DNA of 64,000 nucleotides from an uncultured Candidatus Saccharibacteria bacterium (lineage in GTDB: Bacteria > Patescibacteriota > Minisyncoccia > 2-02-FULL-40-12 > GWA2-44-9): the NCBI GenBank assembly GCA_964491455.1, contig CAZBFM010000001.1, positions 279,425 to 343,424 of the forward strand. Reading direction: 5' to 3'. Position numbers and translations under genes: made by a program. The notes beneath the pieces were generated by a model. That model did not search any database. It was given only the letters and a program-made list of their open reading frames with translations, and was not told where the DNA came from. Of the stretch, positions 10,465-64,000 are shown piece by piece; the stretch's first letter is position 1; every line of letters starts with the position of its first letter.

Positions 10465-10465
10465 T

Positions 10466-11554: not shown

Positions 11555-11555
11555 G

Positions 11556-12119
11556 CTACACGCTCATGAGCTCAGACTCTTTCTTCTTAGCGATATCATC
11601 AAGCTTTCCGTTGTACTCATCAACTATTTTTTGCAGCTGCTCTTTTGCGCGGTGCACATCATCTTCACGTGCAGTCTTTTCTTTTACGGCGGACTGCACC
11701 TTCTTGAGAATATCTTCACGCAATTGGCGCACTCGAATTCGAGCTTCTTCGGTCTTCGTACCGAGTAGTTTTGTATACTCAAGACGACGCTCTTGTGTTA
11801 GCGCCGGAACCGTGAGGCGGACGGCAACCCCATCAACCACAGGAGAAAGTTGCAATGACGAGTCGCGGATTCCCTTTTCGATTGCCGCAAGAGCGCCCTT
11901 GTCCCATGGCTGTATTGCGATACTTCGGGGATCAGGAGTGCTAATGGCTGCGACTTCCTTGATGCGCAAGGGAGTCCCCATATAATCAATCACAATATCA
12001 GAAACCATGTCAGGATTTGCACGTCCCGTACGAATTGACGTGGCTTCGTTTTGTAGCCACTCGATAATCGCTTCAAGGTCTTTACGACGGTCTTTGATGA
12101 GTTGTTCAATCATAATCAA
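11556..12119 (-). CDS. frr: Ribosome recycling factor
   Basis: 187 aa. Characteristic RRF sequence throughout (…IRTGRANPDMV…VDYMGTPLRIK…). Confidence 0.9.
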   Translation of the reverse strand: MIMIEQLIKDRRKDLEAIIEWLQNEATSIRTGRANPDMVSDIVIDYMGTPLRIKEVAAISTPDPRSIAIQPWDKGALAAIEKGIRDSSLQLSPVVDGVAVRLTVPALTQERRLEYTKLLGTKTEEARIRVRQLREDILKKVQSAVKEKTAREDDVHRAKEQLQKIVDEYNGKLDDIAKKKESELMSV

Positions 12120-12125
12120 TGAATA

Positions 12126-13004
12126 CTACCATGAAATACGAGGTAATTCCAGCGCAAAAGCATCAAGGGCCAATCGTTTATTATTCTTTGACTCGCTCAG
12201 ATGAGCAACAACGCTTATGAGTGAGCGCACAAGCACAGCACTTGACGCATCCTCTAGCATTCTCTTCCGTGCCAATGTGAGCCACCACAAAATAACCTCC
12301 CCAGTTCGCTCACGTTCAGCAAGCTGCTTCGTATACAGCAAGCGCTCCGCAATGGGTTGCGCGCAAAACAACTTCAACTCCTCACTGGCTTTCGTTATGT
12401 CACGCATCACATCGCCACGCACACATTGCAATGCGTATCCAGGTCGCCCCAAAGCAATAGAACTCACGAGCTGGATATCGATCTCTTGAAGGTGAGCAGC
12501 CCGTAAGACTTCACGAACGTCATTATCTGGCAGCAGAGAAAATTCTATTTGAAAACATCGTGATAGTATCGTCGAGATAATCGCTCGCGGAAACGATGAG
12601 ATCAGAAACACGGACACATACGGTGGGGTCTCCTCGAGTAACTTCAAGAGAGCGTTTGCCGCTTCATCGCTCAATTTTTCAGCATCATCAATGACGGCAA
12701 TTTTGTGCACGCCATATAGCGGCCGCTGATATGCCCACCGTTTTAGTCGCAAGGCATCGTCGATGGAGATATCCGTTATCTTGCCAGTATCCTTACTAGT
12801 CCCGGTCATCAAAAACATGTAATCGGGATTGTTCGCAATATCACTATCCGTACGCAATACATGTCTCGCAACATCGTGGGCAAACATTTTCTTGCCGATT
12901 CCCGACTCTCCGCTCAGTAAATAGACACCTGAAAGCTTCCCTTTTTTCAGAATTTCTTCCAACAGATTCTTTTGTTGCGTGTGACCATAGACGCTCCACT
13001 GCAT
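12126..13004 (-). CDS. holB: DNA polymerase III delta-prime subunit (clamp-loader AAA+)
   Basis: 292 aa. Walker A-like GESGIGKK and AAA+ lid. Size typical of delta-prime. Confidence 0.65.
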   Translation of the reverse strand: MQWSVYGHTQQKNLLEEILKKGKLSGVYLLSGESGIGKKMFAHDVARHVLRTDSDIANNPDYMFLMTGTSKDTGKITDISIDDALRLKRWAYQRPLYGVHKIAVIDDAEKLSDEAANALLKLLEETPPYVSVFLISSFPRAIISTILSRCFQIEFSLLPDNDVREVLRAAHLQEIDIQLVSSIALGRPGYALQCVRGDVMRDITKASEELKLFCAQPIAERLLYTKQLAERERTGEVILWWLTLARKRMLEDASSAVLVRSLISVVAHLSESKNNKRLALDAFALELPRISW

Positions 13005-13038: not shown

Positions 13039-14160
13039 CTATCCCAACAACGTCTGTGCAATCCGCTGTGCTGCGTCGACATGCGCAAATTCCTTAATCC
13101 GCAACGCCACACCAGGGTACACCAAGGGATCAAGAAGTCGCTGTACTTGTGAAATCAACACTTGACCACTCAGATTCGCGCCGTCCATGACAACAGCACC
13201 GAATCCAGAAAGCTCTTGAGCATTCCGAGCTTGGTGATCGCTCGCAGACCCCACCAGCGGGATAATTATCATGGGCTTTGAGAGATATGATAGCTCCGTA
13301 AGCATCCCCGCTGAACCACGCGTTATGGCAATATCGCATGCCCCATACGCTGTAGCGAGCTGACCCTGATCAAGGAAGGGGTAGACTCGGTAGTGCGCAG
13401 CAATAAGCGGAGCAAACGTACTCTCCCCTTCTTTCATAAGCGTTTCGATAGCCTGACGAACGGACTCGAAATTCCTATCTCCAGTTTGATGAATTATCTG
13501 ATAGTTTTTTTGAAGCAATGAAACAAGCACCTCTAAGATCAGGTCATTGAGTTGCTGCGCTCCAGAAGAACTTCCGGTCACAAAAATGGTTTTCTTAGTT
13601 GGGTCGAGCTTGAGCGCCGATTGCGCGAGTCCACGATCAACGCAACACAGTTCTGTTCGAAATGGATTGCCAACCAATAACGTGGAGCAACCTAATTTCT
13701 TAAAATAGCCATCTGAACTTGGAAACGATGTAAAGACGAGCTGACTTCTTTTGGCGAGCATGCGATTAGCCAAACCCGGGATTGCGTCCGATTCGTGTAG
13801 ATACACCGGTATCCTATACAGTCGTGCCGCCAAGACTGGAAATACACACGTATACCCTCCCTTTGCAAAAACCACATCCGGCATATAGAGCCACATCCGG
13901 ACCAGAGATTGAACAAGAGCGATGGGCGCCTTAAAAATATCGAGGAGATTCCCTATGCTCGAGTAGCGACGTAATTTAGGGGCAATGATCTGAATATACC
14001 CGATACCTGCCTCTCGAGCCGCACGCTCGAGTAGTGGGCCATCACCCATCAAGCAAACACTCACTTCTTTCTCAAGTGAAACCAGCGCTCGCGCAACTGC
14101 AATGAGCGGATAGATATGTCCACCAGTGCCCCCACCAACAAGTAGAACACGTTTGCTCAT
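13039..14160 (-). CDS. murG: UDP-GlcNAc:undecaprenyl-PP-MurNAc-pentapeptide GlcNAc transferase MurG
   Basis: 373 aa. N-terminal GGGTGGH motif and GT28 two-domain architecture. Confidence 0.85.
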   Translation of the reverse strand: MSKRVLLVGGGTGGHIYPLIAVARALVSLEKEVSVCLMGDGPLLERAAREAGIGYIQIIAPKLRRYSSIGNLLDIFKAPIALVQSLVRMWLYMPDVVFAKGGYTCVFPVLAARLYRIPVYLHESDAIPGLANRMLAKRSQLVFTSFPSSDGYFKKLGCSTLLVGNPFRTELCCVDRGLAQSALKLDPTKKTIFVTGSSSGAQQLNDLILEVLVSLLQKNYQIIHQTGDRNFESVRQAIETLMKEGESTFAPLIAAHYRVYPFLDQGQLATAYGACDIAITRGSAGMLTELSYLSKPMIIIPLVGSASDHQARNAQELSGFGAVVMDGANLSGQVLISQVQRLLDPLVYPGVALRIKEFAHVDAAQRIAQTLLG

Positions 14161-14774
14161 GGCTTGTCTGGTAATGATTTGACACCGCCTCGTGGTACGG
14201 CTTTTCGAAGATCGTGAAATATTCGCACCTGCAAGGCTGCACCCAGAATGGCGAAGACGCCACCAAGCGTAAAAGCAGCATCGAATCCAAAGTGCGTAAC
14301 GACGATACCGGAAATAGCGGCCGCGCTTGCGCCGCTAACGCCAATAGCGACGGACTCCATCGACCATTCTACATTTTCCTTCATTGCATCGATATGTCGC
14401 GTAAATATCGCATACCACGGCGGCACTGCGAGCGCTGTACCAATTCCAAAGAACGCCTGAATGACATAGATGTGGTTTGCCTCGGATGCAAACAAATACA
14501 TAAATGGAGTGAGCGCAATCAGGAAGCTGCCCGTTATCATACTGTAGTAATCGTCATACTCTCCGTGATTCTTATCGAGCCAGCGCGCCACAGGTATCTG
14601 AAGAACCGCCTTCACAATTTGAGCGATTGCAGCTGCAAATCCTACAACCTCAATGCTGCCGTTATTGATTTGACCCGTGACATACACCGCAAACACCGGT
14701 GCAAAAACTGAAAAGCCTGCGTTGATGAGGAAATCACTTGTGATAAGAATTCGTATCGTATGGCTAATACGCAT
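14157..14774 (-). CDS. Half-size MFS-type transporter (6 TM). Possibly a truncated remnant.
   Basis: 205 aa. Six hydrophobic helices and an MFS loop motif (…PVARWLDKNHG…). A full MFS has 12 TM, and no partner half lies upstream. Confidence 0.4.
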   Translation of the reverse strand: MRISHTIRILITSDFLINAGFSVFAPVFAVYVTGQINNGSIEVVGFAAAIAQIVKAVLQIPVARWLDKNHGEYDDYYSMITGSFLIALTPFMYLFASEANHIYVIQAFFGIGTALAVPPWYAIFTRHIDAMKENVEWSMESVAIGVSGASAAAISGIVVTHFGFDAAFTLGGVFAILGAALQVRIFHDLRKAVPRGGVKSLPDKP

Positions 14775-34396: not shown

Positions 34397-34456
34397 CTGA
34401 TCATGTCTCCTCGTTATTCTAAAACAAGAACGTATTGTGAATGGACCCAGAATGTC

Positions 34457-34529
34457 CGCCCTGCTGGATTCGAACCAGCGACCTTCTCCTTAAAAGGGAG
34501 CAGCTCTACCAACTGAGCTAAGGGCGGTT
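34457..34529 (-). tRNA. tRNA-Lys (anticodon UUU). 3' CCA is not genome-encoded (ends …A-CA).
   Basis: Reverse complement folds as a cloverleaf. Acceptor CCGCCCT/AGGGCGG, U8, D-stem GCTC/GAGC, anticodon loop CUUUUAA, 5-nt variable loop, T-arm GCTGG-TTCGAAT-CCAGC, discriminator A. Confidence 0.8.
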
Positions 34530-47418: not shown

Positions 47419-47880
47419 TCAATTCCCATGGCACTTCTTAAACCTCTTACCACTCCCGCAAAGGCAGGGTGGATTTTGCGCTAAAAAATTTTTGTTAGCA
47501 GGAAACAGGTTTTCCGGAAGCTGGGAAAGGTCAAACCATTTCATTTCCGAAAATTTTTCCGGTTCCATTAAAGAAGGTTGTCCGCTAAAGCTGGTTGGCT
47601 TGGTATGAACAGTGATGTAATGCTTATTTTCAGCTTCGTAAACGTCGCTGGTGACTCCCAAGATTTCTATATCTTTTACCTCTATCCCCGCTTCTTCCTT
47701 GGCTTCTCTTTGGGCAGATTGAAGGAAGCTTTCTCCGTATTCTATATGGCCGCCCGGCGGGCACCAGGTGCCGTTGGCGTGTTTGGATTTGCGTAGAAAA
47801 AGGAGCAGCTTGCCGTTTTCTACAATGTAAACGCCAATTGCTCCTTTGGGCCTAAGTTTGTCTTGGTCTTCATTTCCCAT
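47419..47880 (-). CDS. NUDIX hydrolase with C-terminal SEC-C zinc-binding motif
   Basis: Nudix box [27 protein letters not shown]-terminus [15 protein letters not shown]. The start is probably MGNEDQ (ATG 8 nt before the secA stop). The track ORF extends to 47925. Confidence 0.7.
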
Positions 47881-50542
47881 GGCACTTCTTGTATTTCTTT
47901 CCAGAGCCACAAGGGCACGGATCATTACGCCCGATAGTATCTGATTGTAGGTTCGGATTGGAAGCGTGATCGTCTTTCGATGTCAGAAGTTGTGTTGCAG
48001 GATCTTCCGATAGGTTAGGGCGACTCTCGACTCCATTTCGAAGCGATGCGGGCCCCGGAGCTACCTGGACCTTAAAGATAATGCCTGCAACGCGAGAAGC
48101 GAGAGTAATCGCAAGCGAACCATACATTCGTTGCGCTTCGATCTTGTACTCGACTAAAGGATCGCGTTGCCCATACGCACGCAATCGTACAGACTCGCGA
48201 AGATGATCCATTGCTTCGATATGGTCCACCCATAGATCGTCAATCGTGCGTACCACAACCGCTCTCTCGATCTGTCGCATCTGCACAGCCCCCATACGAT
48301 CTTCGTGCAGCGCATATAACCGACGCATCTCCACGACAAGATAGTCAGTGAGCTCATCTGCATCGCGATACTCTTTTGCTAGAAGATCCGGAAAGAGCGA
48401 ATCAGGAAATGGCGCGATCGAACGGAGGGTATCGACGATCTCTCGAATACTCAATTCGCCTGTCTCTTCGTTTCTATGCGCTCGCACAATGGCCTGCAGC
48501 TCGCCCTCCAAATATCCCAGGACTGTCTCGTGGATGTCTGGCGAAGAAAGTATCGATCGACGAATGCCATACATGGTTTCACGATGTTTATTCATGACAT
48601 CGTCATACTCAAGTACGTATTTCCTAGAATCGAAGTTATGACCCTCAATTCGACTCTGCGCTTGTGCTATTGATCGGGATACGATGCTGTTCTCGATAAC
48701 ATCCTCATCGGTGACGCCCAGGGTATTCATAATATTCTTCAAGCGATCTCCACTAAATATTCGCACAAGCTCATCTTCAGTGGAAACATAAAACTGGCTT
48801 GCCCCAGGATCTCCCTGGCGACCCGCGCGACCACGGAGCTGATCGTCAATGCGCCGCGCTTCATGACGCTCCGTGCCAAACACGCACAATCCGCCAAGTT
48901 CTCTCACCTCGCGCGCCTCATCCTCATCGATCGGATTACCACCAAGAATGATATCAACGCCGCGCCCAGCCATGTTCGTTGCAACCGTCACAGCGCCCCT
49001 ACGTCCAGCCTGCGCTATGATTTCAGCTTCTTGTTCGTGATTCTTTGCGTTTAGCACCTGATGCTTTACGCCTATCGACGCCAGCAACACCGAGAGCATT
49101 TCATTTTTTTCAATAGAAACGGTTCCCACAAGCACTGGTTGCCCTAGCTCGTGACGACGCTTCACTTCATGTGCGAGTGCCTTGAATTTTCCCAATTCAC
49201 TCTTATAGATGCGATCGGGCAAATCCTTTCGCAAGAGCGGTTTATGCGTGGGGACGACGACTACATTGAGGCTATATACTTTGTGAAACTCCTCTGCAGA
49301 TGTGCGCGCAGTACCCGTCATTCCGGAAAGCTTTCCATAGAGCCTGAAATAATTTTGGAACGTTACCGTTGCCAGCGTTTTGCTTTCGCGTTGGATGAGA
49401 ACGCCTTCTTTTGCCTCCACTGCCTGGTGAAGACCGTCAGACCATCGGCGTCCCGGCATGAGGCGCCCCGTGAATTCATCCACGATAATAACCTCATTAT
49501 CCTTTACGACATACTCTTTGTCTCGACGGAAAAGCACATGCGCACGTAACGCCTGCTCAAGATGATGCACATATCGAGCCCCACCCTCCTCATACATATC
49601 AGCGATACCAAGACGCTTTTGTATCTTTTCAATACCATCGTCGGTAATACTTACTGCTTTTAGCTTCTCATCGATGGTATAGTCCTCACCTTCTTTGAGT
49701 ATTGGCACTGCACGCGCGAATGACGAATATAAAGCGCCCGACTCTTCATCAGGAGCAGAAATGATAAGAGGGGTGCGCGCCTCATCGATAAGGATTGAGT
49801 CGACCTCATCAACGATTGCAAATGCATGCGGAGTCACTTGTCGCTGAGACATATCTTCCAATCTTGGCGCCATATTATCGCGAAGATAGTCAAACCCATA
49901 TTCATTATTGGTTCCATACGTAATATCCGCTTGATATGCTTCGCGCCGACTCACCGGCCGAAGAAACTCATGAACGACTCGAAACGATCCAGTCTCATCG
50001 CGCTCATGATCACTCTCCGCGAGATCGGCAGGCTTCACATGGGAGGAGTCATAGATGTACGAAGCCTCATGATTGAGCACGCTCACTGTTAGGCCTAAGG
50101 CATCATAAATCTGACCCATCCACGTCGCATCACGTCGACTGAGGTAATCATTCACAGTAACAACATGCACCCCATTCCCCGATAACGCATTGAGATACGC
50201 TGGAAGCGTAGCAACCAATGTCTTACCTTCACCGGTCGACATTTGCGCGATTGCACCAGAGTGCAGCACCATACCTCCAATGAGTTGCTCATCAAAATGT
50301 CGCTTACCAGATTTGCGCAGTGATGCCTCACGAACTGCAGCAAACGCCTCAGGCAGCAGCTCATCTAGTGTCGAACCAGTCCGCAATCGCTCCCTAAAAT
50401 CAATCGTTAACGAGCGGAGCTCGTCATCAGATAACGATCGCATATGAGCCTCGAGAGCATTTATTTTTACAACTGAACTCGCGTACGATCGGATGATACG
50501 CGCATTTGCGTCAGGTAAAAACTTCGATAGAAATTCAAACAT
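47870..50542 (-). CDS. secA: Preprotein translocase ATPase SecA
   Basis: 890 aa. DEAD-like motor, PPXD, HSD/HWD, and a C-terminal SEC-C zinc finger [15 protein letters not shown]. Confidence 0.95.
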
Positions 50543-52766: not shown

Positions 52767-54137
52767 ATGCCTCGTGCGCTCACCCTTCTAGCATCTGATT
52801 TTATTGCATTTTACGGTGCGCTTGGTGCCACGTTGTGGCTTCGCTATGGCAACTCGGAATTTATATCACAGTGGAGTGGTCACGTAATTCCTTTTTCGTT
52901 ACTACTAATTGTGTGGTTTTTCGCGCTCTATATTACGAATCTGTACAACGTTCAATTTATGCGTAATGATCGCGAGTTTTTTGAGCGACTCACGCAAGCC
53001 ATGCTATTCGCCACTGTTATTTCAATACTTTTTTTCTATTTTATTCCATTTTTTGGAATCACTCCAAAACGTAATTTGTTCTTCTTTTTGCTTTTACTTG
53101 CCGTGGGAATGTGGAGTATTCGGTTTTTATACAACAAAGTGCTCGCTGGTAGTGCCAAGAAAAACGTTCTCATCGTTGGCATAACTAAGGAGTCACTGGA
53201 GCTCGCCGAGCTCATTACTCATAATCCGCAATTTGGTTATAGTATTCGATCCCTGGTCAACCTCACTCCTGGGTCGTCATCGCTCATCACGCAAACACCT
53301 ATCGGATGGCACATCATACAGAGTCTGAACGAGGTTGACGCCCACATCGTTCGCGAGAACATCGATACGGTTATTATCACTCCTGATGCCTATCAAGCCC
53401 GAGAAGTGGTACACCTTTTTTACTCTACGATATTTCGCCAGATCAATTTTATAACATTGGCCACAATCACGGAGCAACTTACTGGCCGTATACCGCTTGG
53501 ATCAATCAATCAAGCATGGTTTTTGGATAATTTGGCGGAAGGGGCAAAGAAGTCGCTCAGCCCTGTGAAGCGAATCGTCGATGTGATACTGGCGAGTGCT
53601 CTCGGATTGCCGACGCTACTTGCGCTTCCCTTTATTGCTGCGCTCATTCGACTCGACTCTCGTGGTCCCGTATTCTTTCGTCAGGCGAGAACGGGTCAAG
53701 ACAGGAAAACGTTTTCAATAATTAAATTTAGAACGATGCAGATCAACGCAGAGAGCGCGACTGGTGCCGTTTGGGCATCCCACAATGATACACGTATCAC
53801 GCGCATCGGTTCATTTCTTCGTAAGACGAGGATCGACGAACTGCCTCAACTATGGAATATACTCCGTGGAGACATGTCTCTCGTAGGCCCTCGCGCCGAA
53901 CGACCTGAATTTGATACACAACTCGCGCAGCAAATCCCATTCTACAATGAGCGTTACCTCATCAAGCCAGGACTATCCGGTTGGGCTCAAATTAACTACC
54001 CCTATGGAGCATCGATCGATGACGCGACTCAGAAATTGCAGTACGATCTCTACTATATTAAGAATCGCTCTCTGGTACTTGATCTCGAGATCATCCTGAA
54101 AACGATAAGCATATCTCTTCGTCGCTCCGGCCGCTAA
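52767..54137 (+). CDS. Polyprenyl-phosphate hexose-1-phosphate transferase (WbaP/WcaJ-like initiating sugar transferase)
   Basis: 456 aa. N-terminal TM bundle and C-terminal bacterial sugar transferase domain (…RFLRKTRIDELPQLWNILRGDMSLVGPR…). Confidence 0.8.
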   Translation: MPRALTLLASDFIAFYGALGATLWLRYGNSEFISQWSGHVIPFSLLLIVWFFALYITNLYNVQFMRNDREFFERLTQAMLFATVISILFFYFIPFFGITPKRNLFFFLLLLAVGMWSIRFLYNKVLAGSAKKNVLIVGITKESLELAELITHNPQFGYSIRSLVNLTPGSSSLITQTPIGWHIIQSLNEVDAHIVRENIDTVIITPDAYQAREVVHLFYSTIFRQINFITLATITEQLTGRIPLGSINQAWFLDNLAEGAKKSLSPVKRIVDVILASALGLPTLLALPFIAALIRLDSRGPVFFRQARTGQDRKTFSIIKFRTMQINAESATGAVWASHNDTRITRIGSFLRKTRIDELPQLWNILRGDMSLVGPRAERPEFDTQLAQQIPFYNERYLIKPGLSGWAQINYPYGASIDDATQKLQYDLYYIKNRSLVLDLEIILKTISISLRRSGR

Positions 54138-56419
54138 TTCTGCACGCCAAGTCTTGTCAAAACCTCGTCTGCCTTCCGTACGAATTCTTTTTGCGACGCA
54201 ATCGCGGGAACCGCCAGCGCCCGTCGAATAGTGTCGACAACTTTTTGACTATCATTGAGATCGGCATACGCATTAATCAATTGCGACCAATAGTCTGCTT
54301 GCTTTGGGAATGATGCGACCAAACGCTCGAGCATGGCAATCACATTTTTTGCGTCACCTAATTGAGTAAAAATCTGAACCATACGATTACCATCCTGCTC
54401 CGTCATTGCGTACCCCTTCGACAAAGCACTGTTCATGGAGCGTAACGCCTCCTCAACTCCTTGGACGCTATTTTGCGATGCAGCAATTTGATACTGCACA
54501 GTACCGATATACCAATACGTAATGCCCACGTCAGGGTTCAAGTTCGCTGCCTTTTGAAACCATTCGAGTGCTAACTTCGGCTGGTTCTTGTTTAAATAGG
54601 CCTGCGCAACTTCGTAATAGGTCCTTACAAATGTAGGACTGATATCGAGTGCCTTCATCGACATGCGCAGAGCTTCATCATTGTAGGAATCTATTTTCTC
54701 GCTCTTTCCGAGCGTAATATAGAGTCGCGAAAGATAGAGATACGGCAAATAATCGTCCGGATTTTCAATTGTATTCATCTTTACGTCATCAATTGCGCGA
54801 AGTGCTACTTCCTTGAAATTCGGGACTTTACTCACATCAGTTGCACCAGAAATTTCGAGCACATATTGTGCATATCGGTGTCTGTATTCATACCTTCCAG
54901 GAGCGTCTACGTCGATTGCTTCACGAAACTTGTTGACCGCCGTCACCCAATCCCCCTTATATCCAGCAACAATAGCGCGCGTGCTTGCGTAATTAGCAGT
55001 AGAAGGGCGGACGTTGGTGCTGTACACAGCAATGAGGACAATGAATGGGACAATCACGGCGTAGAGTACTTGGCCCGCCGTCCAGACGCGCGCCCTATTA
55101 CTGATCATCGCCACCTGAGGAGCATCAAGTCCACGTAGAGACACGTGCACCACAAAAGCGAGAATCATAAAGAAAGAAAGAAAATTTGCTGACGTGTCAA
55201 AAATAAAACAATTGTGAATGATATAGGCAATCGTCATTGACGTGAGGCCAATGCCTAGAACCCTAGCATCAGAAGCCTCAGCCATAAACGATCGATACTG
55301 ACGGAATGATGCCACGAACAGGGAGAGGTACGATATCAATCCAAAGAGCCCCATGGTAACCGCAACTTCAACAAACATATTGTGAGCACGATCGAAAAAT
55401 GTTTCCGAACCGGGTCCGGTAAAGAACTTGGGATTAAAGTGCTTACTGAATGGGATATTAAAATTCTCCGGCCCCCATCCAAGCAACACCGTCTTGGGGC
55501 TCTCGATCCATCCCTGATACCCAGCGGTCCAAGCCCAGAAACGAGTTTGCACCGTAAAGGTGCTACTGGAAAAATCAGTAACACGCCTCAAATAGGGAGA
55601 GCTCTGAACAAATGACGTCTGTCGTAACATCATTGCCAGAAACACAAACACCACAATTGCCGTTACACCAGCAAGAAGTCCATTTCTAGCAAGACGACTC
55701 CTATTTAAAGACCCCCAGAGTAGCGCCCACGTTAACCCCCCAGCTACGACCCCGATGAGAGAGCCGCGAACCGCCGTTGTTGCAACTGCTAGTACCATTA
55801 CGCCCCCCGAAGCAGCAAACCAACGCGCCATTCTTGGCGACGTACGCTTCATGCTAGCAAGTGAAAAAGCCAAAAAAGCAATGAGGATTTGGTACCCCGC
55901 GAATAATGCTGGATTTCCGATCGTGCCAAATGGACGCTGCCGACCCCCAGATCCCAGAATGAACGTCCAGTCCGTTTTCTGAAGAAATCCATATATCGCC
56001 GAACTAAACCCAACCACAATCATGAGATTCAGGAGGACTTGCCAATCTCGTCTCGTTCGTAGCACCGATATGGTAATTATGTAGAAAACAAAATAGTGCC
56101 AAAACGTGAACAAGCCACCCATGCGCTCGAGCGTACCCCAGAAGCTCTGTAAAAAAGCGACGGAGGTAAACGTCGTAACGGTAAACGCCACTGCAAATGA
56201 CAAAAATGCCCACGTAATGGGATGTGACTTCGGGACATACGATCTATCCCTCCAAATCAAGAGCAAATACAAGGCGGTCATAATCTGAACGACACTCCGC
56301 AGGACAACAACCTTACCGAAATGAAACGGCGACATGTGCTGACTAAAAACAACCAACGGGATGAAGGCGCTAGCGTACACCAACCATTTGAGAATTTTCG
56401 CGAGCATAGATTCGTTCAT
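54134..56419 (-). CDS. O-antigen ligase/polymerase-like (Wzy_C) polytopic membrane protein fused to C-terminal TPR repeats
   Basis: 761 aa, at least 12 TM in the N-terminal 470 aa. The C-terminal 290 aa form TPR-like helical repeats (…AQAYLNKNQPKLALEWFQKAANLNPD…). Confidence 0.5.
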   Translation of the reverse strand: MNESMLAKILKWLVYASAFIPLVVFSQHMSPFHFGKVVVLRSVVQIMTALYLLLIWRDRSYVPKSHPITWAFLSFAVAFTVTTFTSVAFLQSFWGTLERMGGLFTFWHYFVFYIITISVLRTRRDWQVLLNLMIVVGFSSAIYGFLQKTDWTFILGSGGRQRPFGTIGNPALFAGYQILIAFLAFSLASMKRTSPRMARWFAASGGVMVLAVATTAVRGSLIGVVAGGLTWALLWGSLNRSRLARNGLLAGVTAIVVFVFLAMMLRQTSFVQSSPYLRRVTDFSSSTFTVQTRFWAWTAGYQGWIESPKTVLLGWGPENFNIPFSKHFNPKFFTGPGSETFFDRAHNMFVEVAVTMGLFGLISYLSLFVASFRQYRSFMAEASDARVLGIGLTSMTIAYIIHNCFIFDTSANFLSFFMILAFVVHVSLRGLDAPQVAMISNRARVWTAGQVLYAVIVPFIVLIAVYSTNVRPSTANYASTRAIVAGYKGDWVTAVNKFREAIDVDAPGRYEYRHRYAQYVLEISGATDVSKVPNFKEVALRAIDDVKMNTIENPDDYLPYLYLSRLYITLGKSEKIDSYNDEALRMSMKALDISPTFVRTYYEVAQAYLNKNQPKLALEWFQKAANLNPDVGITYWYIGTVQYQIAASQNSVQGVEEALRSMNSALSKGYAMTEQDGNRMVQIFTQLGDAKNVIAMLERLVASFPKQADYWSQLINAYADLNDSQKVVDTIRRALAVPAIASQKEFVRKADEVLTRLGVQN

Positions 56420-56434
56420 TGCAAGTATCTTATT

Positions 56435-57700
56435 TCATTTATCACAGCGGGGCAATATAGACTGATACCTCTTAATCATAGCTCTTGTTTGTTGCGCAGC
56501 GGAAAAACTCATCTCGATTCGGCGCAACCCCGCAAGTCCCATTGCACGACACAGCTCTGGACTCCGCAGAAGCCGTGAAACCTGCATTGCAACACTCTCC
56601 GTGTCGAATGGGTTCACAATGACACCTGTAACATCATGCAGAACAATCTCTGGAGTACCACCGAAGCACGTGCCAATAACCGGCTTCCCCGCTGCCATCG
56701 CCTGCATCGCCATCAGAGGTGCTGGATCCAAATATATTGAAGGTACAGCAACGATAGTCGCTGCAGAGAACAATGCTGCTCGATCTCGACCGTGGAGAAG
56801 ATCAATACAACGCAACGAGCCCTCAACACCACGTTGCCGTGCGTATCGCAGGACTGAATCTCGATATGGACCAGCTTCGATCGCCATCACAACTAGCACA
56901 TCAGGAAAGTGCGCAATAATTCCGGGCAACGCATCAATGAGCACCTCGGTACCCTTATCTTGCATAGCGCGCCCCCCAAACAAAATAATCGGATGATCCC
57001 CGAGATCAAGTTTTTGGCGAAGCACATGTACATCTTCGATACTGGCTTGAAATTCACGAACATCGACACCATTGTAAAACGTTTCAGCATGAGCAATTCC
57101 ATTTTGTCGCAATGCCTCATTGAGCGTCTCCGATACAGAAAATACACCGCTCGCATATTGTAGTGATCGACGAATGCACCACTTTCGAATCGGGTTGTAT
57201 GCCTTGCCAACCTGACGAATTGTGAAGAATGTAGGAACAAAATAATTATATGCCACATGCACACTCTTCTTCGTCGGATCAATAAAATGATAAAGCCTCG
57301 TGTATGCAAAGCTCAACGTATCATGGAGTGTAATAAAGCACGGGACGCCAATCGATCTCACCCATCGAATCAGTGCAAAAGAAAAATGTTCATGTACGTT
57401 ATGTGCATGCACGATGTCGGGTTGTAGTTTCTTGAGGAGAGATATACTGGCACCCCGAATGAACGGGTTATACACCGAGAGATAGGACCGCACAAATTGT
57501 GAGCGTGCCGGAGAATAAATGCGATGTACAGATATTCCTTGATACTCTGTATCTCCAACGCTCTCGAGACGCTGCGTTGCGGTTACCACATGGACCGTGT
57601 GACCTTCGGCCATCATGCCTAAGGCCATATCAAGAGCTACCTGCCCGGCGCCGCCAACGCTCTCGGGTGCAAACGAATCAGTGACGTAGACAATCTTCAT
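56435..57700 (-). CDS. Glycosyltransferase family 4 (GT-B, GT1 domain)
   Basis: 421 aa, with a C-terminal …FGGTPEIV… motif region. Confidence 0.8.
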   Translation of the reverse strand: MKIVYVTDSFAPESVGGAGQVALDMALGMMAEGHTVHVVTATQRLESVGDTEYQGISVHRIYSPARSQFVRSYLSVYNPFIRGASISLLKKLQPDIVHAHNVHEHFSFALIRWVRSIGVPCFITLHDTLSFAYTRLYHFIDPTKKSVHVAYNYFVPTFFTIRQVGKAYNPIRKWCIRRSLQYASGVFSVSETLNEALRQNGIAHAETFYNGVDVREFQASIEDVHVLRQKLDLGDHPIILFGGRAMQDKGTEVLIDALPGIIAHFPDVLVVMAIEAGPYRDSVLRYARQRGVEGSLRCIDLLHGRDRAALFSAATIVAVPSIYLDPAPLMAMQAMAAGKPVIGTCFGGTPEIVLHDVTGVIVNPFDTESVAMQVSRLLRSPELCRAMGLAGLRRIEMSFSAAQQTRAMIKRYQSILPRCDK

Positions 57701-58317
57701 TGCTTTTTGATAATCACAAAACTATCAGAAAAAACGCGACGCGGTGTAACCCAATGGTCCATCCGGATCAGAGAGCGATCCAGCAACCGCAAAAACGCAC
57801 GCTTCAAGCGGGGTTGCTTTTGATACGGATCGAAAAGAAGGAATTTTATATATGATGACGTGAGAGCCCAAAATCCACCATACGCACCCTTTTCCACGAC
57901 GACACACTGATGACTACTAGCAAGCGCGCTAAGTCCCTCGGGGGTATACCGAAAATAATCCCCTGGATCCGAATGAATTGGCTGCGTAAATGGCGCAGTA
58001 ATAATTGCATGTCCGCCTCGCCGCAACACCCGAGCGATTTCCTTCATGAGCGAAGTAGGGCTCGGCACATGTTCAAAGACTTGATTACACAAGACCGTAT
58101 CAAAGGAGCCGTCTTCAAATGGCATTGCCAGCACGTCGCCCGCCACATCAACGTTCCCACCAGCGACCGCATCCAGACAAATATAGGAAGTCGCACTGCG
58201 AAGCACTATGGATTTATATTTAGCAGCAGCGCCACCGCCAGCATCAAGCGTTTGCCCACGAATATATTTCGCAGCATACTCTACAAGATCGCGTGTTGTA
58301 TGAATGCTAGACGACAT
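57697..58317 (-). CDS. Class I SAM-dependent methyltransferase
   Basis: 206 aa. GxGxG-like SAM motif (…TLDAGGGAAAKY…) and Methyltransf_11-like fold. 4-nt overlaps on both sides. Confidence 0.7.
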   Translation of the reverse strand: MSSSIHTTRDLVEYAAKYIRGQTLDAGGGAAAKYKSIVLRSATSYICLDAVAGGNVDVAGDVLAMPFEDGSFDTVLCNQVFEHVPSPTSLMKEIARVLRRGGHAIITAPFTQPIHSDPGDYFRYTPEGLSALASSHQCVVVEKGAYGGFWALTSSYIKFLLFDPYQKQPRLKRAFLRLLDRSLIRMDHWVTPRRVFSDSFVIIKKQ

Positions 58318-59657
58318 TATTCATTAGCTTCACTCGCAAGTCGCAAGAGCAATCGTCGAACATACAGGAACGCGATCGTGTGCGCAATCGCATACCATGC
58401 AGTGACGAGACCAATAGTCCCCCAAGGACCGAAAGCGCGAATCGCCATAAGTCCCAATGGCACCCCGACAAGTAAATTAAAAGTATGAATCATGATCGAA
58501 ACGTGAACCTTTTGAATGGCGCGCAACATCGATCCCAAGCCAATACCCAAACCCATGAAAATTCCGTATGGAATCAGCGCGTATACATAGTGCACGCTCT
58601 GCGCAAATTGAGATCCGTAAAAGATGTGGAATGCGATAGGAGCGACGAGAGCAGCTCCGAGTGTCAACGCGGTCGAGATGCCAACCGCGTACATCGTAAC
58701 TCGAACAAAATTCCGAGATAAGCGCGCAACACCTTGCGTTTTCATTTTAGGAAACTCAACGTTTAGGAGCGTCCCAATGGGACCTAAAAATCCGAGCGCG
58801 AGATTGATATACGCAAAGGCAAGTTTAAAAAAGGTAACGTCTGCCGCAGTTACATAGATCCCTGTGAGAAGAATGGGGAGAATATTATAGAGGTTTGAAA
58901 GATTTCTATCTACTGCGATCCAAAAGCTGTACCGAAGATACGTTCGCACCGGTGCGGTGCGCGCAGAGAGCATTAGCTCGCGAATCCGAGGCAAGACACC
59001 GAAGTCTCTTTGAAGCCCCCGCCACACCACAATCGACGCGCAGCAAAGAATACTCGCTCCCAATAAGTGTCCCGTCACAATACCTCCAACACCCAAGCCT
59101 GCGATCACAAACGAAAGCGCGAATGTCGTCCGAAGCATCTGATCGCTCAGGCCTAACATGGTCATCTGTCGAATACGCCCAACAACTTGAGTTCCGATAG
59201 ACGCGAAAGAATACGCTGTCGTAGAAACGATCGAAGCGCAAATGACGACCGAAGCGAACCATCCAATCGCGGATGTTCCGTACAGGTGCATGGAAATGAA
59301 AGGAGCCAATGCCGCACCGCATAACGTCACAAAACTCATAATAACGGTGATCTTCACCAAAAATGCTAAAGCTGAGCGTATTTCATGCTCATCCCTACGC
59401 GCATATGCCTCACCCAATATCGTGGTGACAGCGTCTTGAGCGCCCACACCTAGAAATATAGAAATGAACCCCGCGAGACTAAATGTGAGTGCATACACAC
59501 CGAATGCCTCAGGCTGAAGCACGCGCGCCATGATGATACCGGCAATCGCCTGGAAGACATTCCCAAACATACTCCCGGCCTGAAGGATTGCCGTATTCCT
59601 AACAAATGTATGCGCTCGAAAGTATGAAATTTTCTCACGTATCCAAGCTATTGACAT
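58317..59657 (-). CDS. Polysaccharide flippase (Wzx/MOP-superfamily)
   Basis: 446 aa, about 12-14 TM, with the Polysacc_synt-like N-terminus. Confidence 0.65.
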   Translation of the reverse strand: MSIAWIREKISYFRAHTFVRNTAILQAGSMFGNVFQAIAGIIMARVLQPEAFGVYALTFSLAGFISIFLGVGAQDAVTTILGEAYARRDEHEIRSALAFLVKITVIMSFVTLCGAALAPFISMHLYGTSAIGWFASVVICASIVSTTAYSFASIGTQVVGRIRQMTMLGLSDQMLRTTFALSFVIAGLGVGGIVTGHLLGASILCCASIVVWRGLQRDFGVLPRIRELMLSARTAPVRTYLRYSFWIAVDRNLSNLYNILPILLTGIYVTAADVTFFKLAFAYINLALGFLGPIGTLLNVEFPKMKTQGVARLSRNFVRVTMYAVGISTALTLGAALVAPIAFHIFYGSQFAQSVHYVYALIPYGIFMGLGIGLGSMLRAIQKVHVSIMIHTFNLLVGVPLGLMAIRAFGPWGTIGLVTAWYAIAHTIAFLYVRRLLLRLASEANE

Positions 59658-59692: not shown

Positions 59693-62600
59693 CTAGAAAA
59701 GTGATTGAATGTACTCCCATTTCAACACCCCATCATACGTAAACTCAACAACATGCTCTCCCCCATGCACAGGAAGTCCGTGGAATAGATAGTTTGTCAT
59801 ATATGACTGCACTGGTCGTCCATCGATGGTGATTCGCCAACCAGGGAGATTCGACTCAGAGAAGACAAGCCAACGATCATGAGAGGTCTTGGTAGTGAGC
59901 CGAAGATATCCGTCACGATACGCGTCAATGGCAATAGAGTCTGAGGGAGTAGGCCGATTCTTGAATGAATCGCAATCAGCGCATTCGATGAATGTAGTGT
60001 TGGCGAAATTAGTGTTTGACTCGATGATTGTTTTGAAATTCTTCTCTTCATCAGTCTCGGATACAAAAGAGACGTTTCGAGCAAAGTAGATGCGAGGCAT
60101 GACCGTCTTGTTCTCATAGAGATAGATAGGAATGTTGAACCGCGTTGATGCCACCTCCTCGATCAGCTGCAGGCCAGGAGTTGCGGGGAGCTCGTATGCG
60201 GAGATGAGATACTTCACGTTGAGCATGGAAAGAACGGGGAGGCGGAGGGTGAAACGAGAGAGCTTTTCACCGAGTGGGATGTCTTCGTTTGCAAGCGACG
60301 TATAACGCTGGCTCACCTCACTCCCCACAAATGCGAGCACGCGCTGCCCTCGTCGTGGTGCCATCGGTTCGTAGCCGTCAATGGTTGCAATGCCGCGTAG
60401 AAGGCCAGTATTAGGCATCAGCGAATCAATGCCATACATCATCGCATCTCTCGAAGCACCCTCATGAATAGCTGATACACGCTGTGAACCTGCAGCACCA
60501 TAGAGAAAGCTAAACGTGCGAAAACTCATTGCATCATCGCCTCTCAAAAGAATCGCGTCCGCGATGTGCGGCGACGAAGAGAGGACTGAAGACCGCGCAA
60601 ACGTGTGCTCCATCATCCCCGACGCACCAAGCAATGCACACGAAGCTATCACTGATGCTCCGGTAAATACCTGCGCATCTCTCGCATACCGAGCCACTAT
60701 GTACACCACAGCAATTGATGCTAGCGCAATCATGGAACTTGCATCTCCGAGTGAAAAATTATCAAACGAACTTCTCACCATTCGCTCAATAAGTGCGTGG
60801 TAGTACTCAAGAGGAAGTCCCGTGGTGCCTTGATACATCCGTTCCGTAAATAGTTGTTGCAGGAATCGAATACTACCCTCACCTGCCACCGCAAATATCA
60901 ATGTTGCTGTCATGGCAACACCAAGCATTGCATTAAACAGGCGCCCCGCATACAACTGAATGCTCGCCCGCCCACTTTCCCAGTGCTCCATCGTCCACTT
61001 CATCCCATAACCAGCCAACATTGCCATCGCAAAATTAAGAACAAACGTCCATCGAGCCGGCCCACGAAAATACTCCAATACGGGGAACTGATGAAGTAGC
61101 CAAAATATAGGAGAGTATTTGAATGACGTCAGAATCGCACCAACGCTCAACAGCGTAAAGAACCTGACACTGGATTCGCTCTTGTACATCTTTGTGACGC
61201 CAATGAGTGCGAATATGAGACCAAAAATACCAATGTACGGTAAAAACTCACCGGAAATACCATATCGAAATGAAAAATGTGGAAGTATAAACTTTATCAA
61301 ATCCAACGGTGTCGCAGCATCGACGCTCGCCTGCGCAAGCGTAAGTCCGCCAATCCTCGTTGAAAGCGGGGTGAACACTGCCATATACAAAAATTGAGGC
61401 AGACCAATTATCAGTGCCGCCACGAATACGCCAATAACACGCCCCCCATCCTTCATTGAATTTCTTAAACTCTTTCCTTCACGATGAGCATCGCATTCCA
61501 ACCACACCCAATACAGCGCAGCAACTATGAGTGCCATAATCACGAATTGCTGATGCGCTCCCAAAAATGACAATCCAATGAGCACCGAATATAGAAGCGC
61601 CACACCCCAGGCCCCTCTGGATGCGCTAAGCGCCATGAGCAATGATACTGGCAAAACATATACCGCAGAAAGAACAGCAATGTTGCCCAACCAATGTGTC
61701 GTAAATTGACCCAATGTAAATGTACCTGCAACCAACAAGCTCACATATCGACGCGAGAATAACTGTCGAGCAAATAGATAACTAAAATACGCCGCCAGAA
61801 ATACAAAGATCACTAGAAGCGCGTTATAACTTTCAGAAATCACACGATAGATTGGATGAAAGAATCCCCACTGAAAAGACGCCGGGATCGGAAATCCAGA
61901 TAGTATCCCGGAAGCCCACTTTGCCCCTCTGGTTGTTGCGTCTGGATAAAAAACCCCAACCGTATCGCCATCAAAGAAAATAAACCTCTGGCCGAAGTAC
62001 ACACCAAGACATACGAGTATAATTACCGCGAACAACACAAGCCTACGCCCTAAGGGATCCTCGTTATAGAAACCTAAAATGCGTTGAATCCAAACTCGCA
62101 GCAACTCCCAAAGCGTATATATGTATGATCCAATCGATACGCGGGATTCGATAGGTGCAGCATAGGTAATAGGCACCTCACGGATGTCCAAACCTCGAGC
62201 CTTGGCGATTGCAAGCATCTCGATGTCGAACCCCCACCGTAGAACTGTAAGCGCTGAGAATATATCATTTGCCAAACTTCCTCGGATCATCTTTAAGCCC
62301 CGCTGAGAATCAACAATATTCCAGCCCATAACGCATCGAATTAATCGCTTTGCGAGAAACCCCAACACCCCTCGTCCCCGGGGTTGCCCACTAATGACAG
62401 CATTGGGTGCAGCAGCAATGATCAGGTCCGCGCCCTCCCGGTATTTTGGCCAGAACTTATCCAGCTCCATCACGCTAATCTGCAAGTCTGCATCTATGAA
62501 CAGTCGACAGTCTCCCTGGGCTGCAAGCATGCCCGTCCTAACGGATGCCCCCTTTCCCCGATTCGACGCATGGGATGTAATGTGAACATGTGATAGATGC

Positions 62601-62779
62601 AAGCCCTCAACTACTGATCTCGTATCGTCGATAGATCCGTCATCAACTACAATAATTTCACACGCCAGATTCTTCGTTTTGAAGTAATCAGTGACGGCAT
62701 AAATTGTGCGAGCAATGCCCTTCCCTTCATTCAGGGCGGGTATAATTACTGACGTCAGATTTGGTAGTGATGATTTCAT
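59693..62779 (-). CDS. Fusion glycosyltransferase: N-terminal GT2 polyprenyl-phosphate glycosyltransferase (GtrB/CsbB/DPM1-like) joined to a YfhO-family GT-C membrane domain and a C-terminal soluble domain
   Basis: 1028 aa. aa 1-235 are GT2 (…VIIPALNEGKGI…VVDDGSIDDT…DADL…). About 12+ TM follow. The C-terminus …LVFSESNLPGWRITIDGRPVQSYMTNYLFHGLPVHGGEHVVEFTY matches the YfhO-family C-terminal signature, from my memory of the family consensus. Confidence 0.6.
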   Translation of the reverse strand: MKSSLPNLTSVIIPALNEGKGIARTIYAVTDYFKTKNLACEIIVVDDGSIDDTRSVVEGLHLSHVHITSHASNRGKGASVRTGMLAAQGDCRLFIDADLQISVMELDKFWPKYREGADLIIAAAPNAVISGQPRGRGVLGFLAKRLIRCVMGWNIVDSQRGLKMIRGSLANDIFSALTVLRWGFDIEMLAIAKARGLDIREVPITYAAPIESRVSIGSYIYTLWELLRVWIQRILGFYNEDPLGRRLVLFAVIILVCLGVYFGQRFIFFDGDTVGVFYPDATTRGAKWASGILSGFPIPASFQWGFFHPIYRVISESYNALLVIFVFLAAYFSYLFARQLFSRRYVSLLVAGTFTLGQFTTHWLGNIAVLSAVYVLPVSLLMALSASRGAWGVALLYSVLIGLSFLGAHQQFVIMALIVAALYWVWLECDAHREGKSLRNSMKDGGRVIGVFVAALIIGLPQFLYMAVFTPLSTRIGGLTLAQASVDAATPLDLIKFILPHFSFRYGISGEFLPYIGIFGLIFALIGVTKMYKSESSVRFFTLLSVGAILTSFKYSPIFWLLHQFPVLEYFRGPARWTFVLNFAMAMLAGYGMKWTMEHWESGRASIQLYAGRLFNAMLGVAMTATLIFAVAGEGSIRFLQQLFTERMYQGTTGLPLEYYHALIERMVRSSFDNFSLGDASSMIALASIAVVYIVARYARDAQVFTGASVIASCALLGASGMMEHTFARSSVLSSSPHIADAILLRGDDAMSFRTFSFLYGAAGSQRVSAIHEGASRDAMMYGIDSLMPNTGLLRGIATIDGYEPMAPRRGQRVLAFVGSEVSQRYTSLANEDIPLGEKLSRFTLRLPVLSMLNVKYLISAYELPATPGLQLIEEVASTRFNIPIYLYENKTVMPRIYFARNVSFVSETDEEKNFKTIIESNTNFANTTFIECADCDSFKNRPTPSDSIAIDAYRDGYLRLTTKTSHDRWLVFSESNLPGWRITIDGRPVQSYMTNYLFHGLPVHGGEHVVEFTYDGVLKWEYIQSLF
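59723..60252. repeat. 530-bp perfect direct repeat, copy 1 (3' end of the GT2-YfhO gene)
   Basis: Identical to 62785-63314, offset 3062 nt. It encodes the identical last 176 aa of the two adjacent paralogs; the supplied ORF track shows identical 106-aa and 66-aa shadow ORFs in both copies. Confidence 0.85.
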
Positions 62780-64000
62780 CGCAACAACACCCCATCATAC
62801 GTAAACTCAACAACATGCTCTCCCCCATGCACAGGAAGTCCGTGGAATAGATAGTTTGTCATATATGACTGCACTGGTCGTCCATCGATGGTGATTCGCC
62901 AACCAGGGAGATTCGACTCAGAGAAGACAAGCCAACGATCATGAGAGGTCTTGGTAGTGAGCCGAAGATATCCGTCACGATACGCGTCAATGGCAATAGA
63001 GTCTGAGGGAGTAGGCCGATTCTTGAATGAATCGCAATCAGCGCATTCGATGAATGTAGTGTTGGCGAAATTAGTGTTTGACTCGATGATTGTTTTGAAA
63101 TTCTTCTCTTCATCAGTCTCGGATACAAAAGAGACGTTTCGAGCAAAGTAGATGCGAGGCATGACCGTCTTGTTCTCATAGAGATAGATAGGAATGTTGA
63201 ACCGCGTTGATGCCACCTCCTCGATCAGCTGCAGGCCAGGAGTTGCGGGGAGCTCGTATGCGGAGATGAGATACTTCACGTTGAGCATGGAAAGAACGGG
63301 GAGGCGGAGGGTGAGCACTCGTAACTTCTCTTGCAGCGGCATCGATGCGTACGCCAATGAATCGCCCGTTGTTGCTCGCTCGCTCCCCACCAATGCTATC
63401 GTTCGCGCAATACGCCGGGTCATGATATTCGAAAAGCCATCAATACTCGAAGCACCATACTGCATGCCAATATTGGGAACCATAAGATCGCGCTGAAATG
63501 CAATGGAATCTGAAATTGAATACCTTCCTGAAAATGGCTGGTGCAATTTCTGGTCGACAGCGGAGCCAGAAAGAACACTCAAATACCTCCCATCTGTAGC
63601 CTGTATGTATGCGGCGAGTGAAGGAGCGCTAGAAATGACTGACGCATGAATAATCTGCGTTCGATTTGGATGCATCATGAAGAGCGAACACGCCGTAAGT
63701 ACTAGTGTCGCAACGCGTGCAGGTCCATCAAAGCCGCGAACCGCTACGCGTCGTACGATGAGAATTGAGACACCAAGAGACGCAAACCCAACGAAAAAAA
63801 TGGAATTGAATGGATCTACATTGGCAATGAGCGCATCGAAAAGAGATGAAATGGAGTTGTGATAATGTTCTACTGAAAGTCCGCCAGCACGAGATGCAAG
63901 AAAGTGCTCATCAAAATATGCGTAGACATATGATAATAGTTGCGTTCGTACAGGGATAACAATCAAACGGACTACAATCGCGCCGAACATCAACACACCA
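62776..64000 (-). CDS. YfhO-family membrane glycosyltransferase paralog (5' end beyond window)
   Basis: TM-rich region homologous to the membrane domain of the 59693-62779 protein, with a C-terminal domain 100% identical to it. A 4-nt ATGA overlap with the downstream gene start. The first in-window Met at 63996 is probably internal. Confidence 0.6.
   Translation of the reverse strand, partial: GVLMFGAIVVRLIVIPVRTQLLSYVYAYFDEHFLASRAGGLSVEHYHNSISSLFDALIANVDPFNSIFFVGFASLGVSILIVRRVAVRGFDGPARVATLVLTACSLFMMHPNRTQIIHASVISSAPSLAAYIQATDGRYLSVLSGSAVDQKLHQPFSGRYSISDSIAFQRDLMVPNIGMQYGASSIDGFSNIMTRRIARTIALVGSERATTGDSLAYASMPLQEKLRVLTLRLPVLSMLNVKYLISAYELPATPGLQLIEEVASTRFNIPIYLYENKTVMPRIYFARNVSFVSETDEEKNFKTIIESNTNFANTTFIECADCDSFKNRPTPSDSIAIDAYRDGYLRLTTKTSHDRWLVFSESNLPGWRITIDGRPVQSYMTNYLFHGLPVHGGEHVVEFTYDGVLLR
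62785..63314. repeat. 530-bp perfect direct repeat, copy 2 (3' end of the upstream YfhO-like paralog)
   Basis: See copy 1. Upstream of the repeat the two genes diverge to about 40-50% amino-acid identity. Confidence 0.85.

Follow-up and report, generated by a model that had tools for sequence, protein, structure and literature searches.

We analyzed a 64,000-nt stretch of DNA (hereafter the window) from an uncultured Candidatus Saccharibacteria bacterium (GenBank assembly GCA_964491455.1, contig CAZBFM010000001.1, positions 279,425 to 343,424), in which a single gene joins a family 2 glycosyltransferase (GT2) to a membrane glycosyltransferase of the GT-C type related to YfhO. The fusion gene (59693..62779) and all of its features described below lie on the minus strand. 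Its open reading frame (ORF) begins with an ATG that overlaps the TGA stop codon of the upstream gene (ATGA), contains no internal stop codon and encodes 1028 residues. Two Pfam families are matched in this one protein: Glycos_transf_2 (PF00535) at residues 10-173 (E-value 5e-25), and YfhO (PF09586) at residues 949-1015, which correspond to profile positions 756-823 (35 bits against a gathering cut-off of 28.5). An AlphaFold2 model built from a 25-sequence input (mean predicted local distance difference test score (pLDDT) of 84, predicted template modeling score of 0.74) has a Rossmann-like α/β domain of the GT-A type up to about residue 235 and a β-rich domain at residues 725-1028. Between them, the model and the hydropathy profile place about 13 long membrane helices (residues 242-722). 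A first-pass annotation made from the DNA letters had described the protein as a GT2 at residues 1-235, 12 or more transmembrane (TM) helices and a YfhO-type C-terminal β domain with the motifs PGWRITIDGRPV and GEHVVEFTY. This architecture is borne out in each part, and the two motifs are located at residues 979-990 and 1007-1015. Full-length counterparts are found in other assemblies, namely P0002 (77% identity, 1028 residues), P0003 (69%, 1029 residues; annotated as coming from a Patescibacteria metagenome-assembled genome) and P0005 (42%, 1022 residues), and the junction between the modules is conserved in an alignment of nine fusions. As these relatives keep the same full-length architecture, the gene is not a pair of ORFs divided by an overlooked frameshift or stop codon.

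The GT2 module (62075..62779; residues 1-235) is a cytoplasmic GT-A domain without TM helices of its own, which profile and fold matches place among the polyprenyl-phosphate glycosyltransferases. When the single sequence was searched against the PDB, the top matches were ArnC, GtrB and the Pyrococcus DPMS (E-values for ArnC and GtrB from 1e-7 to 3e-9). A profile of the nine fusions placed DPMS (7e-32, residues 7-226), ArnC (6e-30, residues 7-273) and GtrB (7e-27) on top, and the ArnC alignment with this profile continues through the helix at residues 216-234 into TM1. Structures of non-polyprenyl GT2 enzymes align only to the nucleotide-binding first ~100-137 residues, except for TarP (6h1j, residues 7-196, E-value 5e-15). 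The top 25 Foldseek matches of the module are all polyprenyl-phosphate enzymes, with GtrB and ArnC as the best structural matches. The model contains helices at residues 138-151 and 216-234. The latter (62078..62134) is amphipathic, immediately precedes TM1 and, according to a DSSP assignment on the model and the ArnC alignment, is the positional counterpart of the juxtamembrane helix JM2 of GtrB and ArnC. The DXD metal/nucleotide-sugar motif D96-A-D98 (62486..62494) lies within a DADLQ sequence (residues 96-100) that aligns with the DADLQ of ArnC, DPMS and GtrB. The nine fusions show no variation at D96, D98, Q100, R136, D157, K163 and E187, and D157 aligns with an Asp in both DPMS and ArnC. 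The corresponding D157 of GtrB has been proposed as the catalytic residue, with the metal bound by the DXD motif (PMC4728340). Thus, the module combines a GT-A fold, a DXD motif and a catalytic-type Asp with an acceptor half and juxtamembrane helices homologous to those of polyprenyl-phosphate glycosyltransferases.

The subtype is a different matter. In GtrB, JM2 stands ahead of the TM region, and the protein has two C-terminal TM helices and forms a tetramer (PMC4728340). Two C-terminal TM helices of their own together with a β-hairpin mark the GtrB/CsbB subtype, whereas the present module leads at about residue 235 straight into TM1 of the GT-C domain. The closest free-standing relatives are TM-less GT2 proteins of about 240 residues with 39-46% identity, many of them from the Candidate Phyla Radiation (CPR), and several are named dolichyl-phosphate beta-glucosyltransferase (ALG5-like) by NCBI or JGI. 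Because the module lacks TM helices of its own and its nearest relatives are TM-less proteins of this size, we classify it by sequence as a putative polyprenyl-phosphate hexosyltransferase of the ALG5/DPM1-like TM-less kind, not as a GtrB/CsbB orthologue. The original label of a GtrB/CsbB-like GT2 therefore stands for the polyprenyl-phosphate class, given the ArnC, GtrB and DPMS matches, but not for GtrB/CsbB proper. As a separate observation, a free-standing ALG5-like GT2 that is 40% identical to the fused module is followed in L088 (5001-7349), and also in L089, by genes for a galactose-1-phosphate uridylyltransferase and for a membrane protein with a DedA/VTT domain. The latter belongs to a family implicated in the recycling of undecaprenyl phosphate.

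The remainder of the protein consists of a GT-C membrane domain (60614..62056; residues 242-722) and an extracytoplasmic C-terminal domain (59696..60607; residues 725-1028) with a β-sandwich at residues 855-1015 and a conserved C933/C936 pair. An exhaustive HMMER search with residues 236-1028 against 1.84 billion cluster representatives returned 275 matches at E≤1e-30 and 9,898 at E≤1e-3, mostly proteins of 770-830 residues aligned end to end. Against Pfam YfhO, the majority consensus of 124 of these relatives scores 6e-25 and covers profile positions 3-597 of 835, and single relatives also match it, such as P0059 (31% identical to the query; positions 4-596) and P0180 (positions 7-476). The placement of the membrane domain in YfhO/GT-C, which the first-pass annotation had left to a profile search, thus holds through its relatives. 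The motif FFD270-G-D272 (D270-G-D272 at 61964..61972) directly follows TM1; its acidic residues, in the loop that first emerges on the extracytoplasmic side, are candidates for the GT-C catalytic site. Of 112 family members, 107 have D or E at position 272, and the nine fusions do not vary there. The motif agrees with the acidic one reported for the corresponding loop of YfhO/GtlB-type GT-C enzymes (PMC5836110). The order of cytoplasmic GT2, TM1 and an outside loop with D270-G-D272 fits the canonical GT-C layout, and with 13 helices the conserved loops (R475, D493, R572/R576 and Y660/H661) and the C-terminal domain are placed outside. AftD and AftA are the best structural relatives of both the membrane and the soluble domains, and the C-terminal module resembles the AftD soluble domain. 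Taken together, a PF09586 match, a membrane domain collinear with YfhO at the family level, about 13 TM helices with an acidic loop and a large outside C-terminal part, and a GT-C fold place the domain, on profile evidence, as a divergent member of the YfhO family, with a predicted transfer of sugar from an undecaprenyl-phosphate-linked (C55-P) donor to an extracytoplasmic polymer.

We then asked how frequent this fusion is, a question that the first-pass annotation had raised. Among the 150 nearest 50%-identity cluster representatives, seven carry the GT2-YfhO fusion (the window's own cluster, P0040, P0005, P0044, P0059, P0098 and P0111); the six outside the window's cluster are 30-45% identical, and, except for P0169 described below, the other representatives are unfused. 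In a rough neighbor-joining tree of the first 60 aligned relatives, a subset that does not include P0098 and P0111, all included fusions but one fall into a single clade intermixed with unfused proteins, and P0059 falls into its sister clade. Relatives of the GT2 domain occur in fusions with further GT-C families as well, namely GT2-PMT_2 (P0023 and P0026) and GT87-GT2 (P0007). The fusion is thus a minority architecture, rare yet recurrent in related genomes; the impression that a TM-linked architecture of this kind is unusual was right as to rarity, but it is not a one-off. All of the fusions bear only generic database names, and a literature search for a described GT2-YfhO or GT-A/GT-C fusion found none; one candidate report (PMC7117936) was rejected, as "fusion" is there the name of a mass spectrometer. 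A contig scan of genomes with the fusion alignment, which settled on a generic GT2 N-terminal motif, gave unrelated GT2 genes only, and two long matches (L010 and L062) proved to be separate ORFs. A metagenome contig scan with the junction peptide returned only the contig of the unfused locus L003. Another relative of the membrane domain, P0169 (1184 residues), carries an N-terminal GT4 of the GT-B type (Glycos_transf_1, residues 186-367) in place of the GT2.

The fusion gene is embedded in a glycan gene cluster. Upstream of it, and overlapping it, lies a YfhO-like paralogue (62776..64000, minus strand), of which the C-terminal ~408 codons fall within the window; its counterpart in the orthologous locus L001 is an unfused protein of ~797 residues. 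Downstream are a Wzx/MOP-type flippase gene (Polysacc_synt; 58317..59657), a methyltransferase gene (57697-58317), a GT4 gene (56435-57700) and the gene of a 761-residue Wzy_C/O-antigen-ligase-like protein (54134-56419), all on the minus strand. The last of these combines a membrane Wzy_C domain with C-terminal tetratricopeptide repeats (TPR) and is kept in all related loci. A divergent initiating phosphoglycosyl transferase gene (Bac_transf; 52767-54137) on the plus strand is followed by an unannotated 584-residue ORF and then by SecA. The gene order of this remainder of the cluster (52767..58317) is shared with the related loci L001-L004, and the conserved order of the whole is GT2(+methyltransferase), YfhO1, [GT2-YfhO2], Wzx, methyltransferases, GT4, Wzy/TPR and Bac_transf. 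The Wzx-like gene adjoins the second YfhO gene in L001-L003 and L005 (on the opposite strand in L005), and in L004 it lies one gene further downstream, after a DUF218 gene. L001, which carries the 77% orthologue, has the same order, with an upstream 517-residue GT2-methyltransferase fusion and the 797-residue YfhO paralogue. With this GT2-methyltransferase (L001 6061-7614; L003 5265-6818), the cluster shows another gene fusion, as L004 (4031-5589) and L005 (4078-5618) have separate genes for a 233-residue GT2 and a methyltransferase of 287-293 residues (63-69% and 40-49% identical to the respective parts of the fusion).

The GT2 part of the fusion gene varies between these loci. In L003, a 249-residue methyltransferase gene (9205-9954) stands where the fused GT2 would be, and the YfhO orthologue (9944-12328, 61% identical) is unfused. 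An apparent loss of TM1 in this orthologue (P0004, 775 residues) was rejected, since the database gene call is too short and the true ORF, from the ATG at L003 9944 (57 nt upstream), has TM1. In L005 both YfhO genes are unfused, and a GtrA-family gene lies close by. Identity between the fused GT2 and the one upstream is only ~28%. From these differences, the fused GT2 is a module that is gained, lost and replaced within a conserved cluster. Elsewhere in the window, long ORFs lie almost all on the minus strand and include the housekeeping genes for PBP2, Lon, SecA/D/F and a class II aminoacyl-tRNA synthetase, together with one tRNA (34455-34527); this content is consistent with a small chromosomal replicon rather than a mobile element. 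A 168-residue NUDIX hydrolase (47419-47925, minus strand) ends in a SEC-C zinc-binding motif resembling the C-terminus of the adjacent SecA (secA, 47870-50542). A major facilitator superfamily (MFS) transporter is apparently split (13039-14774, minus strand), as the ORF at 14157-14774 (205 residues) covers the first half of MFS_1 only and abuts the ORF at 13039-14160.

The two YfhO paralogues of the window share a repeat that the first-pass annotation had missed. A 530-nt tract of the fusion gene (59723..60252; residues 843-1019) recurs with 100% identity at the 3′ end of the upstream paralogue (62785..63314, minus strand), and 5′ of this tract the paralogues are only 40-53% identical in DNA sequence. 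The longest exact run shared by the two paralogues is 524 nt in L001 (9476-9999/12538-13061), 467 nt in L003 (8677-9143/11776-12242) and 571 nt in L005 (approximately 7420-7990/9780-10350), and L004 has none. In the window as well as in L001 and L003, the 5′ boundary of the tract falls at almost the same codon (R-LP[VI]LSMLNVKY). Compared between genomes, the tracts of the four are only about 67-89% identical, and orthologous tracts differ by some 15-35%. Because the tracts are identical within a genome yet divergent between genomes, with a near-constant boundary, the pattern points to recurrent gene conversion (concerted evolution) limited to the β-sandwich domain and not to an assembly artefact. 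This suggests that a common acceptor- or partner-binding domain may be required in both paralogues; perhaps the AftD-like domain is kept identical because both dock to the same polymer or partner.

We consider it likely, with a probability of roughly three in four, that the gene encodes a genuine two-enzyme membrane protein of a Wzx/Wzy-type surface-glycan cluster, which works as a synthase and as an outside transferase. The sugar, the lipid, the acceptor, the flippase and the selective advantage in the following scheme are what we infer. At the inner face of the membrane, the cytoplasmic GT2 module would move a hexose from a nucleotide sugar to polyprenyl phosphate of the undecaprenyl type; glucose is the probable sugar, judged only from the annotation of relatives. 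As the GT2 module has no TM helices of its own, the first helix of the GT-C module would anchor it to the membrane. A separate protein would then flip the lipid-monophosphate-sugar to the outer leaflet, and candidates are the neighboring MOP/Wzx protein and a GtrA/GtcA-type protein encoded at another place in the genome. Finally, the 13-helix YfhO-type GT-C module would transfer the sugar to the surface polymer made by the same cluster, using its AftD-like soluble domain and the outward-facing loop with the acidic residues D270 and D272. Both reactions would thereby be coupled in one protein, with a flippase still required, as the first-pass annotation had also supposed. The fusion fixes the two activities at 1:1 and in one place, which would avert a dead-end lipid-linked sugar that ties up scarce carrier lipid. 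It has been reported that overexpression of csbB without yfhO is harmful in Bacillus subtilis, which was attributed to trapped undecaprenyl-phosphate-linked intermediates (PMC12826051). GacI and WpsA, two TM-less GT2 synthases, depend on membrane partners (GacJ and WpsB, respectively), and GacI and GacJ are naturally fused in some species. In view of these two lines of evidence, the fusion would provide an anchor in the membrane as well as obligatory 1:1 expression.

Several points weigh against this reading. The sugar specificity is read only from the database names of relatives. Membership in the YfhO family comes from the C-terminal 67 residues and from transitive, family-level evidence, and the membrane domain of the fusion itself, searched alone against Pfam, gave no match. 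A PDB sequence search with the 124-member family profile returned no solved YfhO relative, and biochemical proof of YfhO activity has been stated to be lacking even for the B. subtilis YfhO (PMC5836110). In the AlphaFold2 model, the pLDDT is 53-69 at the junction and TM1 (residues 231-270), too low to position the two active sites relative to each other, and the model is therefore silent on channeling between the modules. No GtrA-type flippase was found in the window, L001, L003 and L004 by phmmer searches or by a Pfam scan of small membrane ORFs. In addition, the orthologue in L003 and the relatives in L005 do without a fused GT2, so the fusion is dispensable for the GT-C module.

Other explanations can be set against these data. 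That misassembly or a frameshift joined two genes, producing the fusion, the 530-nt repeat or both, has a negligible chance: the genome is of the uncultured type and exact repeats 3 kb apart could mislead assemblers, but the full-length fusion with its conserved junction occurs in other assemblies at 77, 69 and 42% identity, six more 50%-identity clusters contain it, and L001, L003 and L005 each have their own identical 3′ tract, different in sequence from one to the next. A slim chance falls to the idea that the GT2 module is an ordinary cytoplasmic enzyme, extending an undecaprenyl-diphosphate-linked repeat unit or acting on another cytoplasmic acceptor, and is simply tethered to the GT-C module. 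The donor for the latter would then come from another synthase, for example the separate 233-residue GT2 or the product of the upstream GT2-methyltransferase gene. The GT2 family is indeed very broad, the single-sequence matches to ArnC and GtrB have modest E-values, every related locus has another GT2 immediately ahead of YfhO1, and unfused GT-C orthologues exist. What speaks for a polyprenyl-phosphate synthase instead is that the acceptor half and the juxtamembrane helix are aligned by polyprenyl-phosphate enzymes only (DPMS to residue 226 and ArnC to residue 273, while TarP reaches residue 196), together with the uniform top 25 Foldseek matches and the annotation of the closest relatives as dolichyl-phosphate-glucose synthases.

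We give a small but real chance to a different role for the YfhO module, namely as a chain-building or protein-glycosylating GT-C enzyme (compare Aft/Emb and PMT) rather than a side-chain decorator, using the lipid-phosphate-sugar for processive sugar addition or for the glycosylation of a protein, for example a pilus or S-layer subunit. AftD and AftA, the best structural relatives of both domains, would fit such a role, as would two tandem YfhO paralogues near a Wzy_C+TPR protein whose family also includes O-oligosaccharyltransferases, and CPR envelopes are little known. Decoration is nevertheless what the characterized enzymes YfhO and GtlB do, acting on existing polymers (PMC5836110), and the cluster already holds a full Wzx/Wzy/Bac_transf set for building a polymer. 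The fused protein might also be self-contained, passing the lipid-phosphate-sugar directly to the GT-C domain and across the membrane along that domain, or by an oligomeric assembly, without a GtrA-type flippase. This would fit the fused loci, as no GtrA gene was found in them and the unfused L005 has one, and we regard it as quite improbable.

If the protein is a synthase joined to its outside transferase, it bears on several questions beyond this cluster. YfhO-type enzymes are widespread and their activity is inferred only genetically, and the fusion to a synthase would be independent "Rosetta-stone" evidence that they use a lipid-monophosphate sugar. With both enzymes in a single polypeptide, the two half-reactions could be reconstituted or imaged together, and the unsolved question of how the lipid-phosphate-sugar crosses the membrane is sharpened. 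The loci also illustrate the reshuffling of glycan-decoration modules in small CPR genomes, in which a GT2 is fused, lost or replaced and tandem paralogues undergo gene conversion. Nothing is overturned by these findings, as the architecture has been present in public protein databases, unremarked, under generic "glycosyltransferase" names.

The fusion varies a known scheme of three-component glycosylation and is not a new kind of system. Among the nearest known systems is the CsbB-YfhO(-GtcA) glycosylation of B. subtilis lipoteichoic acid (GtlA/GtlB/GtcA in Listeria), in which a GT2 likewise makes the C55-P-sugar inside and a YfhO-family GT-C, which has 13 TM helices and whose first outside loop bears an acidic motif, acts outside, the two being encoded by adjacent and co-transcribed genes (PMC5836110). 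Here, in contrast, both enzymes are one polypeptide, the GT2 is ALG5-like without TM helices of its own, and the YfhO module belongs to a divergent CPR subfamily that Pfam recognizes only at its C-terminus; moreover, the gene belongs to a Wzx/Wzy glycan cluster that holds two YfhO paralogues in tandem, and no GtcA/GtrA was found nearby. The GtrA/GtrB/GtrC system of O-antigen glucosylation and the ArnC/ArnT system of lipid A modification follow the same logic of a GT-A polyprenyl-phosphate synthase, a flip and a GT-C transferase. GtrB and ArnC, however, have two C-terminal TM helices and form tetramers (PMC4728340), whereas the juxtamembrane helix of the fusion leads into TM1 of the GT-C domain, and GtrC and ArnT belong to GT-C families other than YfhO. 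A further likeness, to ALG5 and DPM1/DPMS with ALG6/8/10 or PMT, is given by the relatives annotated as dolichyl-phosphate beta-glucosyltransferases and by DPMS as the top profile match; there, the synthase and the GT-C enzymes that use its product never share a polypeptide, and the sugar of the present module is assigned by annotation only. Mycobacterial AftD (PDB 6w98/6wbx) shares 10-14% sequence identity with the fusion, is larger (1264+ residues), carries extra carbohydrate-binding modules, uses decaprenyl-phosphate-arabinose as its donor and has no fused synthase. Finally, the GT2-PMT_2, GT87-GT2 and GacJ-GacI fusions are alike in joining a related GT2 to a membrane partner or a GT-C enzyme, but the GT-C families differ (PMT_2/GT39-like and GT87), the domain order is reversed in the GT87-GT2 protein, and GacJ is small and non-catalytic.

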